In this document: piece after piece, positions 27,091-63,634 of the stretch
Layout: each line of letters begins with the position of its first letter
Numbering within the stretch: position 1 is the stretch's first letter
Source of the DNA: an uncultured Gemmatimonadales bacterium
GTDB taxonomy: Bacteria; Gemmatimonadota; Gemmatimonadetes; Gemmatimonadales; Gemmatimonadaceae
Direction of reading: 5' to 3'
Length of the DNA stretch: 64,000 nucleotides
NCBI GenBank assembly: GCA_963701965.1
Contig: OY969695.1
Span: 2,112,001-2,176,000 of the forward strand
The notes under the pieces: model-generated
The model's database searches: none
What the model was told of the DNA's origin: nothing
The model's input: only the letters and a program-made list of their open reading frames with translations
Position numbers and translations under genes: made by a program

Positions 27091-27130
27091 ACGTTCGGTT
27101 GAGCGCCGGGCTCGGCGCTCAGCCGAACGT
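27091..27130. terminator. 18-bp hairpin between convergent genes
   Basis: ACGTTCGGTTGAGCGCCG-GGCT-CGGCGCTCAGCCGAACGT; overlaps the dipZ stop; no U-tract. Confidence 0.65.
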
Positions 27131-28840
27131 GAAGGCGTATACGGCAACGCCGGGGTCCAGAAACTCGATCTCGAATGTGTGATCGACGATCGTGCCGTGC
27201 TGTCGGATGAGTTGGTAGAGTCGCTGCGTTGTGACCGTGCCATTGCCATCGGCATCCGTATCGGTCCCGTGGTCTTCCATGGGCGCCTGTCCGTCGATCC
27301 GGACCCGGAACCGCACCGGACGACCGGTCGCCGTCGGACCGAGCACCAAATGCAGATCGCGCGCGCGGAATCGATATGCGATCCGCCCGGTGCCGCCCGT
27401 CAGCGCGGCGGACTCCGGCCCTATCGTCCAATCGCCGGCGAGCGCCCACGCATTGCGATCGAGAGGCGAGGGTACCGAGTAGGTTGCCGCGCTGTCCCGT
27501 TGCACCGTCTCCGGCGACGCCAACCGCTCGGCACGCCGATACCCGATGTACGTCTCGGGGGACCCGACGCCCTGCTGCGCCGCCGCGGCCTCGGCGCCCG
27601 CCGCGTCGACGGTCGCGGGCGCGGCGCCCGGCGCATGACCGGCCTCCGTCAGCAACGCGCGGATCTCCCGCTCGGTCGCGGCGTCATGCCCCTCGCCCGC
27701 GGCGCGATAGCGAATGCGCCCCGCCGTGTCGACGAGATACTCGGCCGGCCAGTAGTGATTGTCGAGGGCGCGCCAGATCGCGTACGTGTTGTCGAGCGCG
27801 ACCGGATAGGTAACGCCGAGGTCGCGCACGGCGTGCGCGACATTGGTCGGATCGCGCTCGAACGCGAACTCCGGCGAGTGGACCCCGATGATCACGAGCC
27901 CGTCGGCGCCATACCGCGACGCCCACGCTTTGACGTAGGGCAGCGTACGCAGGCAGTTGATGCACGAGTACGTCCACACATCGAGCAGGACGACGTGTCC
28001 GCGCAGACTGGCGGGCGTGAGCGGCGCCGTGTTGATCCAACCCGTCGCGCCGGCGAGATCGGGTAGTGCACCGGCGCCGGCCGCGCCGGCGACGTTCGGC
28101 ACGGGAGGAGTCGCCACTGACGGCCCACCCGCGAGTCCGTCGACCAAGCGTTGCTCCGCGGGAGTCGTACTCGCCAACGACAGCCGCGCGAGAATGCCCG
28201 TGTCCCATCCCATGGCAACGGTCACGACGCCGATCAGCACCGCGACGCCTAGCCCACGCCGGATCCACTCCTCGGCGCCGAGGCTGCGCTTCATGGCGGC
28301 GAACACGCGCGACCCCGCGGCCGTGGCCAACCCGAGCGAGACCGCCGCGCCCGCGGCGAACGCCAGCAGGAGCCCGGTCGTGCGCACGCTCGCGCCGCCG
28401 AGCGCGGCGCTCGTCAGGATGAGACCGAGCACGGGACCGGCGCAGGGCGCCCACAGAAATCCCACCGCGACGCCCAAGAGCAGCGCGCCGCCGATGCCGG
28501 CGCGCGCGTCGGCCCGCTGCTGGAGCCGGCCCCCGAGCGCGACCAAGGGGCGTGTCAGTCGATCGCCGACCGCGGGCAGAATCAGCGCAACGCCAAACAC
28601 CGCCAGCAGGACGAGCGCCGCGCCGCGTCCGACTTGATTGGCGCGCACGACCCACCCGCCACCGATCGCGGCCGTCGACGCCACGGCGGCGAACGTCACC
28701 GCCATACCGATCAACGTCGGCAGCCCGTTGGTGCGGAAGGGACGGTTTGACTGGGCGAACACGAATGGAATGACCGGCAGCACGCAGGGGCTCAGGATCG
28801 TGAGCATGCCGCCGAGGAACGCCAGGACGAAGAGGAGCAC
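27119..28840 (-). CDS. dipZ: DipZ (CcdA domain + thioredoxin + C-terminal domain)
   Basis: SPCVLP, WAPCAGP, WTYSCINC and terminal AFTFG. Confidence 0.92.
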   Translation of the reverse strand: MLLFVLAFLGGMLTILSPCVLPVIPFVFAQSNRPFRTNGLPTLIGMAVTFAAVASTAAIGGGWVVRANQVGRGAALVLLAVFGVALILPAVGDRLTRPLVALGGRLQQRADARAGIGGALLLGVAVGFLWAPCAGPVLGLILTSAALGGASVRTTGLLLAFAAGAAVSLGLATAAGSRVFAAMKRSLGAEEWIRRGLGVAVLIGVVTVAMGWDTGILARLSLASTTPAEQRLVDGLAGGPSVATPPVPNVAGAAGAGALPDLAGATGWINTAPLTPASLRGHVVLLDVWTYSCINCLRTLPYVKAWASRYGADGLVIIGVHSPEFAFERDPTNVAHAVRDLGVTYPVALDNTYAIWRALDNHYWPAEYLVDTAGRIRYRAAGEGHDAATEREIRALLTEAGHAPGAAPATVDAAGAEAAAAQQGVGSPETYIGYRRAERLASPETVQRDSAATYSVPSPLDRNAWALAGDWTIGPESAALTGGTGRIAYRFRARDLHLVLGPTATGRPVRFRVRIDGQAPMEDHGTDTDADGNGTVTTQRLYQLIRQHGTIVDHTFEIEFLDPGVAVYAFTFG

Positions 28841-60123: not shown

Positions 60124-60732
60124 ATGCAGTTGGATCTTCGCGGGGTGGGAGCATTTCTCGCCGCGGCTTGCGTATTGGCGCCGGGGGCGCGCGCGCAGGC
60201 ACCGGCAGCAGAACCAGCGTCCGGTCCGGACGTTGGCGCCATGGCACCCGATTTTACGCTGCCGGGCGCGACGCGGTACGGTCTGCTCAAGGGGCAGGTG
60301 CACTTGAGCGACTATCGCGGGCAGACGGTCGTGTTGGCCTTCTTCTACAAGGCGCGGACCAAAGGCTGAACGATCCAAATGGAGGCGTACCGTGATCAGT
60401 ACGCCACGCTCTTTCACAACGGCCGCAAGGTTACCGTCATCGGCATCAGTGTCGATCCGGATACCACCCTGGCCGCCTGGGCACACGAATCGGATTTTCC
60501 GATCGTCTTCGCCAGCGACAGTGGCAGCGTCATCGGCAAGCAGTATGGCGCCTACGATGCCCAGTACAAAGTCGACAACCGATCGCTGTTCGTCGTAGGG
60601 CCGGACGGGAAGGTCACGTACGTGACGAAACCGTTCAAAGTGTTGGCACCCGCCGCGTACTCCGATTTGGCGAAGGCCATCGATAAAGTCACGCCGGCAC
60701 CACCCGCTTCGGCGAGCGCGTCGGGCGGGTAG
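60124..60732 (+). CDS. Exported peroxiredoxin (BCP/AhpE-like), putative selenoprotein with UGA = Sec at codon 82
   Basis: Two track ORFs are in the same frame and separated only by TGA 60367-60369. Joined protein: APDFTLP, LAFFYKARTKG-U-TIQM, VIGISVD, FASD, NRSLFVVGPDG. Confidence 0.85.
60384..60405 (+). promoter_or_regulatory. Candidate bacterial SECIS element
   Basis: Hairpin GGCGTAC-CGTGATCA-GTACGCC, 14 nt after the UGA; GU at loop positions 2-3. Confidence 0.65.
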
Positions 60733-60737
60733 TTCGA

Positions 60738-61226
60738 CTACAACGCTTTCTTGATCGCGGCGTCAAGGTCCTGCGTGCCGCCGACTCCGGTATAGACCAC
60801 CTTACCGGCGCGATCAATGACGACGACGTACGACGTCGCGGGAGCATCATAGGCTCCCGCGGCGTTGCCGTCGGCGTCATACACGACCGGTTCCGGCATG
60901 TGATGCGCGGCGGCGTGCTTCTGCACCCTTTCGAAAGACTCGTTGATCGCTACCGCGACGGTGACAAAACGCACGCGTCCCGCGTATTTGGCCTGCGCGG
61001 CGGTCAGGGCGGGCTCGAGCTCCTTGCAGTTCGGGCACCAGGTCGCCCAGAACTCGACGAGCGTCGGTTCGGGGCCAACGAGGTGGGACAGGTCGACCGA
61101 TTTCCCATCCAACGATCGCACGAGGGCCGCCGGGGCCTTGGTCCCGAGCGCGATGCCGCCATCCTGCGCGTATACCGGCGCCGCCAGGAGAATGACGCCG
61201 GCCGTCATGAAGGTCGCAATGGACAT
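60738..61226 (-). CDS. TlpA-family thiol-disulfide oxidoreductase
   Basis: Signal peptide; EFWATWCPNC. Confidence 0.92.
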   Translation of the reverse strand: MSIATFMTAGVILLAAPVYAQDGGIALGTKAPAALVRSLDGKSVDLSHLVGPEPTLVEFWATWCPNCKELEPALTAAQAKYAGRVRFVTVAVAINESFERVQKHAAAHHMPEPVVYDADGNAAGAYDAPATSYVVVIDRAGKVVYTGVGGTQDLDAAIKKAL

Positions 61227-61234
61227 GGCAATCC

Positions 61235-61954
61235 TTAAATCAGTTGTTGGCCCGTCAGGATGAGATAGTACTCCGCGGCGCCGAGCATGATCAACGCGAA
61301 CGCGCGTTTGACCCACAGCATCCACGCGCCCGCGCGCGGGAGACGGGCCAGCGCGCCCGTCGAGAGACCGGCGACCACGAGGAACGTGCACATCCCGAGC
61401 GAGAAGACGAACAAGTAGATGAACCCCAGCACCGCGCTGTGCGTGGTACCGACCCACGTCAGGATGGCGGCCATGACCGGCGCCGAGCACGGCGCGGCCA
61501 CCAACCCCGACGCCGCGCCCATGACCAGCGCGCCAACCGCGCCGCCACCCCGTCCCGCGCCCACGGCGCGGGCCATCAGCGCTGACGGGATGGGGACAGG
61601 CATGACGTCCAGCATGACCAGGGCGAACACGATGAGGAGATTCGCCATCGCGAAGTACGCCCATGGATTCGAGCTGACGGATCCGAACAGCGTGCCCGTG
61701 AGGCCGGCCAGGAGGCCCAACGTCGCGTACACGAGCGCGAGCCCGAGGACGTAGCTCAACGTGAGCGCGAGGGGCCGCACCCGCGACCCGCCGGAGTCGC
61801 GCCCGACACTCTCGCCACCGACGATGGCCGCCGTGATGGGAATCATCGGGTAAATGCACGGCGTGAAGCTCGTGAGCACCCCGGCCCCGAAGACGAATGG
61901 CACCGCGGTCCAGGGGTGGGACGACAGCTGTGCCGCGAGTTGGGCGTGGTCCAT
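61235..61954 (-). CDS. ccdA: CcdA/DsbD-beta membrane electron transporter
   Basis: SFTPCIYPMIP and AAPCSAP. Confidence 0.9.
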   Translation of the reverse strand: MDHAQLAAQLSSHPWTAVPFVFGAGVLTSFTPCIYPMIPITAAIVGGESVGRDSGGSRVRPLALTLSYVLGLALVYATLGLLAGLTGTLFGSVSSNPWAYFAMANLLIVFALVMLDVMPVPIPSALMARAVGAGRGGGAVGALVMGAASGLVAAPCSAPVMAAILTWVGTTHSAVLGFIYLFVFSLGMCTFLVVAGLSTGALARLPRAGAWMLWVKRAFALIMLGAAEYYLILTGQQLI

Positions 61955-62117: not shown

Positions 62118-63101
62118 ATGCGCCCGACCGCCCATCCCCAGAGTGCTCTCCGCGCACCCCTGAACACGATTCTCGGCACTGAGGCTCGGGTGCGCATCAT
62201 GCGCGTCCTCGCCACGACCGATTCCCCAATGGGGCCCGGCGAGGTAGCCCGGCGCGCGGCGCTCAACCGATCTGGCGTGCGGCTCTCGCTCGCGGAGCTC
62301 GTCGCGGCGGGCCTGATTGAAACTGTCGGCAGTGGTCGCGCACTCGTTCAGCTCCGTCGTGTCCACCCGTTGACCCCGGCAATCGTCGCCCTCTTCGCCG
62401 CGGAGGCGGCACGTACCGACTCGGTGTTCGAGCAGATTCGCCGCATAGTCCATGCGAATATCCCGATGACAGACGTCCGCGCCGCATGGTTGCAAGGGCC
62501 GCTCGTCACGGGTGACGATCGGTTGGGTGACACGCTCACCGTCGGTTTGTTGGGCACCGCGGCGACCGTCGACAACGCGGCGGTGACGCTCCGCTCGGCG
62601 CTCGCTCCGCTCGCGCACTCACACGACCTGATGATCGAGGTACGGGCGTTGACCAATGCGGACCTGATGACATTGTCGGCAGCAGATCGCAGGGCCCTGG
62701 CTGACACGCTTCCGCTCCTGGGCCCACCGCCATCTGCACTCGCGGAGCCGGGCGCGCCACGAGGTCGGACGCGACCCAAACGCACGCACGCCGATCTTGA
62801 TGCCCAGGCGCTGGCGATGAGCCGTGCGGTTGCCAAGAAACTGTCCACGCACCCCGAATTGGCGTCACGTGCCCGGCGCTACATACTTGGGCGCACCCGC
62901 AAGGCGTCGGCAAGCGAACGCGCGACGCTCGAGGAGTGGGACGAGATCCTCACGACCATGTCGATCCCGCGACTCCGCCGGTTCCTCACGGATCCCGGCC
63001 CGCGCGCCACGCGACTTCGCCAGTCCCTCCCGTTCGTCGACGCGCTCTCGCAACAGGAGCGCGAAGCATTACGTAAGGCCTTGCGACCCTCGACGAGATG
63101 A
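62118..63101 (+). CDS. wHTH + degenerate nucleotidyltransferase-like + helical C-terminal domain (putative antitoxin)
   Basis: N-terminal ARVRIMRVL...GEVARRAAL; middle AAWLQGPLVTGDD; C-terminal EWDEIL...RLRQSLPF. Confidence 0.7.
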   Translation: MRPTAHPQSALRAPLNTILGTEARVRIMRVLATTDSPMGPGEVARRAALNRSGVRLSLAELVAAGLIETVGSGRALVQLRRVHPLTPAIVALFAAEAARTDSVFEQIRRIVHANIPMTDVRAAWLQGPLVTGDDRLGDTLTVGLLGTAATVDNAAVTLRSALAPLAHSHDLMIEVRALTNADLMTLSAADRRALADTLPLLGPPPSALAEPGAPRGRTRPKRTHADLDAQALAMSRAVAKKLSTHPELASRARRYILGRTRKASASERATLEEWDEILTTMSIPRLRRFLTDPGPRATRLRQSLPFVDALSQQEREALRKALRPSTR

Positions 63102-63634
63102 CTCGAGAGGAGCTCGAACACGCCATTCGGGCCGCATGTGACGTCAGCGACGACACCGAAGTTCACGTGTTCGGCTCGCAGGCGATCCTCGGACCGTTCC
63201 CTGATGCGCCGGCGAGCCTCCGTCAGTCGGTGGAGGTCGACATGGCGCCGGTGCATCGCCTCGACCAAATCGACGCGATCGACGGCGCTCTTGGCGAATT
63301 GTCGCCGTTTCACGCCACCCATGGTTTCTACGTACATGGGATTCCCGTGGAAGCGGCCACCCTCCCCGACGGCTGGCGCGGTCGGTTGGTGAAGGTGCAA
63401 AACGCCAACACGCGCCAGCGAATCGGATGGTGTTTGGCCGCGGCGGATCTCGCGGCTAGCAAGCTCGTTGCGTTCCGCGACAAAGACCGTGCATTCGTGC
63501 GCGCGTTGCTCGGCGCAAAGCTGATAGCGGCCCGCGAACTGATTGACGCACTGCTTCTGCTGCCGATTCAACCGACCGAACGCGACCGGCTCATCGTCTG
63601 GATCCGGAGCACGGCAGGCGATTTTGCGCGATGA
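63098..63634 (+). CDS. DUF6036-like nucleotidyltransferase
   Basis: LEHAIRAA, VFGSQAILG, SVEVD, LPDGWRGRL and KLVAFRDKD; ATGA coupling. Confidence 0.8.
   Translation: MTREELEHAIRAACDVSDDTEVHVFGSQAILGPFPDAPASLRQSVEVDMAPVHRLDQIDAIDGALGELSPFHATHGFYVHGIPVEAATLPDGWRGRLVKVQNANTRQRIGWCLAAADLAASKLVAFRDKDRAFVRALLGAKLIAARELIDALLLLPIQPTERDRLIVWIRSTAGDFAR

Follow-up and report, generated by a model that had tools for sequence, protein, structure and literature searches.

A predicted exported selenocysteine peroxiredoxin-fold protein encoded beside a CcdA/DsbD-beta-TlpA pair: a candidate envelope redox relay in Gemmatimonadota

Toward the end of the window, the whole 64,000-nucleotide stretch of an uncultured Gemmatimonadales genome that was analysed, a membrane electron transporter gene (ccdA) and a thioredoxin gene (tlpA) face the gene of a peroxiredoxin (Prx)-fold protein (prx). 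The features are as follows:

60124..60732, + strand: gene of a Prx-fold protein, very probably a selenoprotein, 202 codons (amino acids) with one in-frame TGA; AhpC-TSA (Pfam)
60367..60369, + strand: in-frame UGA, the inferred selenocysteine (Sec) codon, at the peroxidatic Cys position (codon 82, FFYKARTKG-U-T)
60385..60404, + strand: SECIS-like hairpin, 6-bp stem and 8-nt loop, starting 15 nt past the UGA
60733..60737, no strand: gap of 5 nt between the convergent prx and tlpA stop codons, without a terminator-like site
60738..61226, - strand: TlpA/ResA-like thioredoxin gene, 162 aa, WATWCPNC, predicted cleavable signal peptide; Redoxin (Pfam)
61235..61954, - strand: gene of a stand-alone CcdA/DsbD-beta-like membrane electron transporter, 239 aa; DsbD_TM PF02683, 166 bits

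This arrangement of ccdA and a WCPNC thioredoxin gene opposite the Prx gene had been described in the original prediction, and all of its coordinates were confirmed. The spacing between ccdA and tlpA is 8 nt. A promoter scan of the locus gave 0 sites, and a terminator scan gave 2 sites against 1.5 expected, none of them inside the gap between prx and tlpA. The pattern at the locus goes beyond chance, because the UGA and the 20-nt hairpin are kept in orthologues and the trio recurs through the class. Behind an AT-rich spacer, at window positions 62118-63634 (+), follow the genes of an HTH protein and of a DUF6036 nucleotidyltransferase, which look like an unrelated inserted pair and are possibly toxin-antitoxin-like.

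The UGA at codon 82 aligns with the catalytic Cys of orthologues. The 6-bp stem is perfect in all 42 UGA forms counted, 40 of which share the same 20 nt, and in none of the 15 Cys forms, where the hairpin decays; two further Cys forms and three rows that were partial or distant stayed outside this count. The Prx alignment also found a set of 80 loci, which may overlap the other Prx sets counted here; the TGA was present in all 80 and the identical 20-nt hairpin in 78, and 77 of the 80 loci carry Gemmatimonadota rank names. Of 101 genomes of the window's family, 61 contain the exact hairpin pattern, a count that takes in the unpublished G012, on which nothing claimed here depends, with 0 matches for the reversed control. 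The genome encodes tRNA-Sec (selC), and selA, selB and selD score above cut-off. The selD gene (G000:C1:354852-355975) has an in-frame TGA itself and adjoins tRNA-Sec. From the hairpin, the machinery and the Cys orthologues, we infer that the window's Prx is very probably a selenoprotein in which UGA82 is read as Sec. We give almost no credence to the reading that the UGA is a true stop, with the Prx gene broken or split and no selenium step. It is true that open reading frame calling under code 11 splits prx into pieces of 81 and 117 aa, and that the 74-nt region 3' of the UGA is no more stable than its shuffles (z -0.8), but the UGA and the hairpin are kept class-wide, the hairpin decays in the Cys forms, and the Sec machinery of the genome is complete.

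The deduced protein has a predicted signal peptide (aa 1-24), Thr79, Sec82 and Arg153, and its mature part contains no Cys. Without a resolving Cys, the mature protein would need an outside thiol; 1-Cys Prx are described as resolved in this way in a review (PMC4749874), and direct reduction of 1-Cys BCP by Trx is given as possible in another (PMC8945050). Structure prediction gave a Prx fold with high confidence (pLDDT 90.8), nearest to AhpE, Prx1 and Bcp4, and the protein has the Thr/Ser, the peroxidatic Cys/Sec and the Arg of a Prx. Tyr75, though, replaces the motif Pro of PxxxT/SxxC. When residues were counted over 187 distinct cores (139 Sec, 45 Cys and 3 without a catalytic residue), Thr/Ser stood at position -3 in 139/139 Sec forms, and Arg153 was nearly invariant among the orthologues. 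A second Cys was present in 2 of the 139 Sec forms and 1 of the 45 Cys forms (absent in 137 and 44, respectively), and the motif Pro was retained in 9/139 Sec forms versus 44/45 Cys forms; close orthologues of the window's Prx have the full PxxxTxxC motif. Because the Pro has been lost in the Sec forms, peroxidase activity cannot be assumed, and the window's protein is filed as Prx-derived and working like a Prx rather than as a canonical member. All Prx NCBIfam models score far below cut-off on it (66.2 versus 270 for PrxU NF040737 and 61.6 versus 140 for BCP NF006960). In a crude signal-peptide check, a hydrophobic leader was found in 88 of 92 Prx sequences, and a hydrophobic region with an AxA-Q-type site in 39 of 40 full-length TlpA members, 10 short calls having been set aside. 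Export, stated earlier of the thioredoxin, is thus a prediction for both TlpA and Prx.

If the Sec form is recharged by its neighbours, as proposed below, it may still not be mainly an H2O2 peroxidase, and its role could lie with other substrates, be they bulky lipid or organic hydroperoxides, oxidised thiols of proteins, or reactive species of sulfur or halogens, or else in redox sensing. The uneven retention of the Pro is consistent with such a role, since the motif has been called essential or absolutely conserved (PMC3322552, PMC13188914, PMC4749874), as are the low NCBIfam scores, the lack of a catalytic residue in some operon paralogues, and the case of Caulobacter PrxL, an ScsB-dependent Prx-like protein without peroxidase activity (PMC3322552). 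In contrast, the invariant Thr/Ser, the nearly invariant Arg153, the complete motif of close orthologues and the Prx fold itself argue for peroxide chemistry, and we regard a mainly different role as rather unlikely.

The second protein, TlpA, has a redoxin fold with WxxWCxxC and is TlpA/ResA/DsbE-like on this basis, with scores below the curated cut-offs (ResA, 58.9 of 170; rhizobial TlpA, 39.6 of 230; DsbE, 31.4 of 123). No plasmid match for TlpA was obtained at E 1e-20. An orphan paralogue, 54% identical, is located at G000:C1:3038957-3039406 (-) and adjoins genes for an ABC-F ATPase and a 2'-5' ligase-like protein; this site is the seat of ccdA-tlpA in many members of the family, and ccdA is gone from it in G000.

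The transporter consists of a DsbD_TM domain with two Pro-Cys motifs (Cys33 in TPCIYP and Cys156 in AAPCSAP) and no periplasmic domains, which places it with CcdA/DsbD-beta, although it falls below every curated NCBIfam cut-off. It scored 150 bits on the DsbD model, compared with 55 and 37 bits for two canonical CcdA proteins of relatives. Of 20 second DsbD-family loci that were read in relatives, 17 hold a canonical stand-alone CcdA (SPCVLP, WxPCxGP), most of them lying in a priA housekeeping region. Given the distinct Cys motifs and the higher score on the DsbD model, bare DsbD-beta is the best name for the window's transporter. The earlier designation as CcdA was right as to a DsbD_TM transporter and needs to be narrowed to a stand-alone DsbD-beta-like protein, as opposed to the canonical CcdA of cytochrome c maturation.

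In total, 121 genomes of the phylum were searched with the Prx alignment, TlpA and CcdA, and positions were tabulated for 101; the other 20, from five distant families, had no Prx family or TlpA at the thresholds used. Both the Prx family and TlpA were found in 94 of the 101 tabulated genomes, and every TlpA-positive genome has the Prx family. The ccdA gene lies at most 2 kb from tlpA in 85 of 86 genomes. In 61 of the 94 genomes, 53 of them with ccdA too, a prx gene and tlpA are no more than 500 bp apart, and in 33 they are unlinked; breaks between draft contigs can hide such links and never create them. The 61 links comprise 41 convergent pairs, all with the TGA form, and 20 co-directional pairs, all with a Cys paralogue. 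By family, the window's own has the link in 6 of its 27 genomes, a sister family in 44 of 52 and a third in 0 of 1 (G038, at 714 bp just past the limit); outside the window's order it was found in 11 of 14 genomes from three families. Within the window's genus, the trio is present in G001, G003 and G005, and the link is absent in G002. The low figure for the window's own family and the case of G002 speak against a functional tie.

Since related genomes are not independent, the flanking genes were examined. In 26 convergent loci, chosen by hand across families, no other gene family occurred in more than 4, and the trio thus persists while its neighbours turn over. At 37 loci, the prx and tlpA stops were between -61 and 435 nt apart, with a median of 37 nt; as judged by eye, a GC hairpin lies in many of the longer gaps. 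In favour of a tie, G040, G130 and G127 gave no match for any of the three genes. There are also exceptions, which count against it: Prx was present, and TlpA and CcdA orthologues were not found, in G017, G109, G156 and G157 (at least 95% complete); and G008, as well as G019 (79% complete), has the ccdA-tlpA pair without the Prx family. Conservation of the trio, on which the original prediction had been staked beforehand, is therefore seen as linkage in 61 of 94 genomes, in three gene orders and with changing flanks.

In a quick tree of 97 Prx rows (all Prx trees used here are quick trees), a subfamily A of 73 mostly Sec rows was separated from a Cys-only subfamily B by a branch with SH-aLRT of 100. 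The three gene orders are ccdA-tlpA facing prxA, ccdA-tlpA-prxB, and tlpA-prxB-ccdA, the last in G114 and G116. The prxB gene occurs in ispG-ccdA-tlpA-prxB operons, some of which have lost ccdA and retain tlpA-prxB, and in genomes with both subfamilies it is often B that occupies the operon position, with the Sec gene at another site. By an AU test from which two long rows were excluded (p 0.0007), the linked Prx genes are not a single clade, a result that says nothing on the number of origins. Three PrxB paralogues in operon position have no catalytic Cys or Sec; those at L152:5188-5766 and L257:2979-3554 still stand behind ccdA-tlpA and are possible pseudoenzymes. Cys and Sec forms of Prx occur in tandem at L241:1487-2613 (G126).

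The two families also occur joined in one protein: a profile search of 1.84 billion representatives returned P0010, a protein of 340 aa in which TlpA (E 8e-64) is joined to PrxB (E 1e-64). A search with P0010 at E 1e-60 gave 12 proteins: three fusions, one frameshift artefact and eight single Prx. The fusions (P0010, P0156 and P0157) have a 21-aa polar linker, one signal peptide and no second one; they are 61-73% identical to P0010, each is on a single metagenome contig, and they form one clade inside B (SH-aLRT 92). That a single fusion event has lasted through about 30-40% divergence gives good evidence of cooperation between the TlpA and Prx families, for B and not for A. No TlpA-Prx fusion was found among 401 genomes of the window's order, no full-length fusion among the 43 loci of a metagenome scan with the fusion query, and no TlpA-Prx fusion in the 2 matches from a search for longer TlpA forms. 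Two candidates were rejected as fusions: P0158, a frameshift artefact, and the case of G385, two in-frame genes with a stop between them and a second signal peptide. At this locus (L305, G385:C267), tlpA and prxB are in the same frame with a TGA and one codon between them, a plausible precursor state of a fusion. The fold predicted for the fusion from a 4-row alignment had two domains and a low-confidence linker (pLDDT 67.8, pTM 0.44) and is uninformative on docking. Other Prx fusions in the representative library (P0025, P0145 and two-domain rows) join Prx to a C-terminal CxxC domain, or BCP to an MsrB-like domain, as judged by eye, or to a second redoxin domain.

From these gene and protein sequences, we propose, with a probability of roughly three in four, that CcdA/DsbD-beta, TlpA and the Sec-Prx form one envelope relay that would recharge the predicted exported Prx. 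UGA82 would be read as Sec, for which the evidence is strong, and Prx and TlpA are predicted to be exported by Sec/SPase I. As suggested by the fold, Thr79 and Arg153, Sec82 would then attack a hydroperoxide and become a selenenic acid. Given that a resolving Cys is absent, Cys64 of TlpA would attack the selenenic acid directly, and Cys67 would resolve the Se-S bond. Finally, the membrane protein, through Cys33 and Cys156, would re-reduce TlpA from cytoplasmic thioredoxin, a step suggested by what is known of the DsbD/CcdA family and by the near-invariant pairing of ccdA and tlpA. The Sec form A is linked only convergently, and it is therefore not co-transcribed with the ccdA-tlpA pair. Flow in the reverse direction, in which Prx would use peroxide to oxidise TlpA and thereby introduce disulfides into envelope proteins, is chemically possible for any Prx-thioredoxin pair. 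In 85 of 86 genomes, however, TlpA goes together with a reductant transporter of the DsbD family, and for oxidation this genome has a gene pair of its own, DsbA-like and VKOR, so that we consider reverse flow highly improbable.

It had also been pointed out that no cytochrome c or cytochrome c maturation genes are nearby. No called gene with CxxCH was indeed found among 82 genes (the window and 20 kb beyond), and PF01578 matches lie at 1.48, 3.94 and 4.56 Mb, with the trio at 2.17 Mb. The statement on ccm is likewise true, ccmABC and ccmEFH being far from the trio, but as an argument it is weak, because the ccm clusters of this genome are themselves without an adjacent CcdA or CcmG, and it was dropped as evidence of dedication. 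The genome further encodes a DsbD in split form, a ResA-like protein anchored in the membrane, and a fusion of CcdA with thioredoxin, and cytochrome c maturation therefore has other possible donors. The split DsbD consists of a DsbD_N gene and a beta-gamma gene (L054:5552-7140; G000:C1, about 2829.5-2831.1 kb). The fusion of CcdA with a C-terminal thioredoxin domain, encoded at window positions 27119-28840 (-), has 573 aa and a CINC motif; it is a third DsbD-family transporter, which we take to be DipZ-like. Far from the trio, a second exported Prx of 179 aa (G000:C1:260625-261164, +) has a signal peptide, the full motif with its Pro and two Cys, and is PprX-like by description. MsrA and MsrB with signal-peptide-like leaders are encoded at L258:1363-2052 and L261:1375-1905 of the same genome and are possible clients of an envelope thioredoxin; shorter, cytoplasmic-looking copies of both are also present.

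TlpA may thus serve further clients, and with an exported MsrA, MsrB and PprX-like Prx in the genome it may be a hub. Taken further, this would mean that the CcdA-TlpA pair is a reductant for such other clients, whether MsrA/MsrB, cytochrome c maturation or the PprX-like 2-Cys Prx, and that the Sec-Prx is a co-located antioxidant recycled otherwise. Pathways from CcdA through a thioredoxin to MsrAB are known (PMC7034828), the ccm clusters have neither CcmG nor CcdA beside them, and 33 of 94 genomes show no link between the pair and prx. Against this, no msr, ccm or sco family recurs beside the ccdA-tlpA pair in the loci read, and no SCO family was found in the genome. Cytochrome c has other routes, both in relatives, with canonical CcdA in 17/20 loci, and here, through the split DsbD, the ResA-like protein and the CcdA-thioredoxin fusion, and TlpA-Prx fusions exist. 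We therefore think it quite unlikely that the Sec-Prx stands outside the relay, and retain the relay with the Sec-Prx as a client of TlpA.

The relay had been put forward as a selenium-based analogue of an envelope peroxide reduction pathway of Caulobacter crescentus, in which ScsB reduces TlpA (CC2210) and TlpA reduces PprX (CC1673) (Cho et al. 2012, PMC3322552), and the paper bears out this precedent. In that system, ScsB reduces PprX only by way of TlpA, and DsbD's thioredoxin-like gamma domain is also capable of reducing PprX (PMC3322552). The analogy is supported by the linkage in 61 of 94 genomes, the three gene orders, the changing flanks and the natural TlpA-Prx fusions, with the qualifications that the fusion and the operon form concern the Cys paralogue and that the Sec-Prx has neither a resolving Cys nor the motif Pro. 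Both systems combine a DsbD-superfamily transporter, an exported TlpA-type thioredoxin and an exported BCP/PrxQ-like Prx with the same proposed flow, export being predicted in ours. Unlike ScsB, with its alpha, beta and gamma domains, the transporter of the trio is a 239-aa beta-only protein; unlike PprX, which has two Cys including a resolving one and PxxxTxxC, the window's Prx would use Sec. Furthermore, the genes of the trio are clustered or fused, whereas PprX and TlpA of Caulobacter were found by STRING analysis and a genome screen (PMC3322552). The trio therefore likely works like ScsB-TlpA-PprX without being a member of that pathway.

Among bacterial Sec-Prx such as PrxU of Eubacterium acidaminophilum (PMC13188914), the window's protein shares the PF00578 fold, TxxU and the UGA with a hairpin; it differs from the catalogued members in its predicted signal peptide, single redox residue, lost Pro and low score on NF040737 (66 versus 270), and in its proposed partnership with a CcdA-TlpA pair of the envelope. 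The main text of the Sec-Prx review (PMC13188914) was not found to use the words secreted, exported or periplasm. The CcdA/thioredoxin-like lipoprotein/MsrAB pathways of Streptococcus (PMC7034828, PMC3914529) likewise have a stand-alone CcdA, a neighbouring exported thioredoxin and an antioxidant enzyme close by, but the client here is a Prx and not an Msr, and the proteins look like SPase I substrates and not like lipoproteins. The best structural and profile matches of the window's Prx are 1-Cys AhpE of M. tuberculosis and archaeal and bacterial Bcp, whose 1-Cys forms also have no resolving Cys; identity is about 30%, and AhpE and Bcp are cytoplasmic Cys enzymes, whose recycling goes through Trx, Grx/GSH or mycothiol systems (for Bcp, PMC8945050).

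The TxxU Sec-Prx as a catalogued family (PMC13188914) and an envelope relay with Cys are already known. As the original prediction had supposed, no published account was found, in literature of which the subscription part was thinly covered, of an exported Sec-Prx with a CcdA-TlpA donor or of these Gemmatimonadota genes; BSepDB (PMC13326102) may list the proteins, and its text as seen does not contain the phylum name. The one well-tested envelope Prx found in the literature is Caulobacter PprX, whose deletion gave no peroxide phenotype (PMC3322552). Here, a class that is abundant and little studied widely carries a selenium version together with its probable donor chain, and gene callers split the gene in two. 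Sec and Cys forms that occur naturally, some retaining the motif Pro and others not, are, with the natural fusions, a ready set for studying the effect of selenium on the Prx active site. The same set suits the question of how a single-residue Prx is recycled where no glutathione-glutaredoxin system is known. It is possible, as a tentative and bolder proposal that we think has a smaller chance of being right than of being wrong, that most Gemmatimonadetes defend their envelope with a single-Sec Prx subfamily in which selenium freed the otherwise invariant Pro and opened the site to different oxidants, in which a free thioredoxin, fed by a bare DsbD-beta, resolves the enzyme directly, and whose three genes move as a compact cassette, with a sulfur twin that became fused to its thioredoxin. 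If this is true, the selenoenzyme of these bacteria would act in the periplasm and be recycled by a trans-membrane line dedicated to it.
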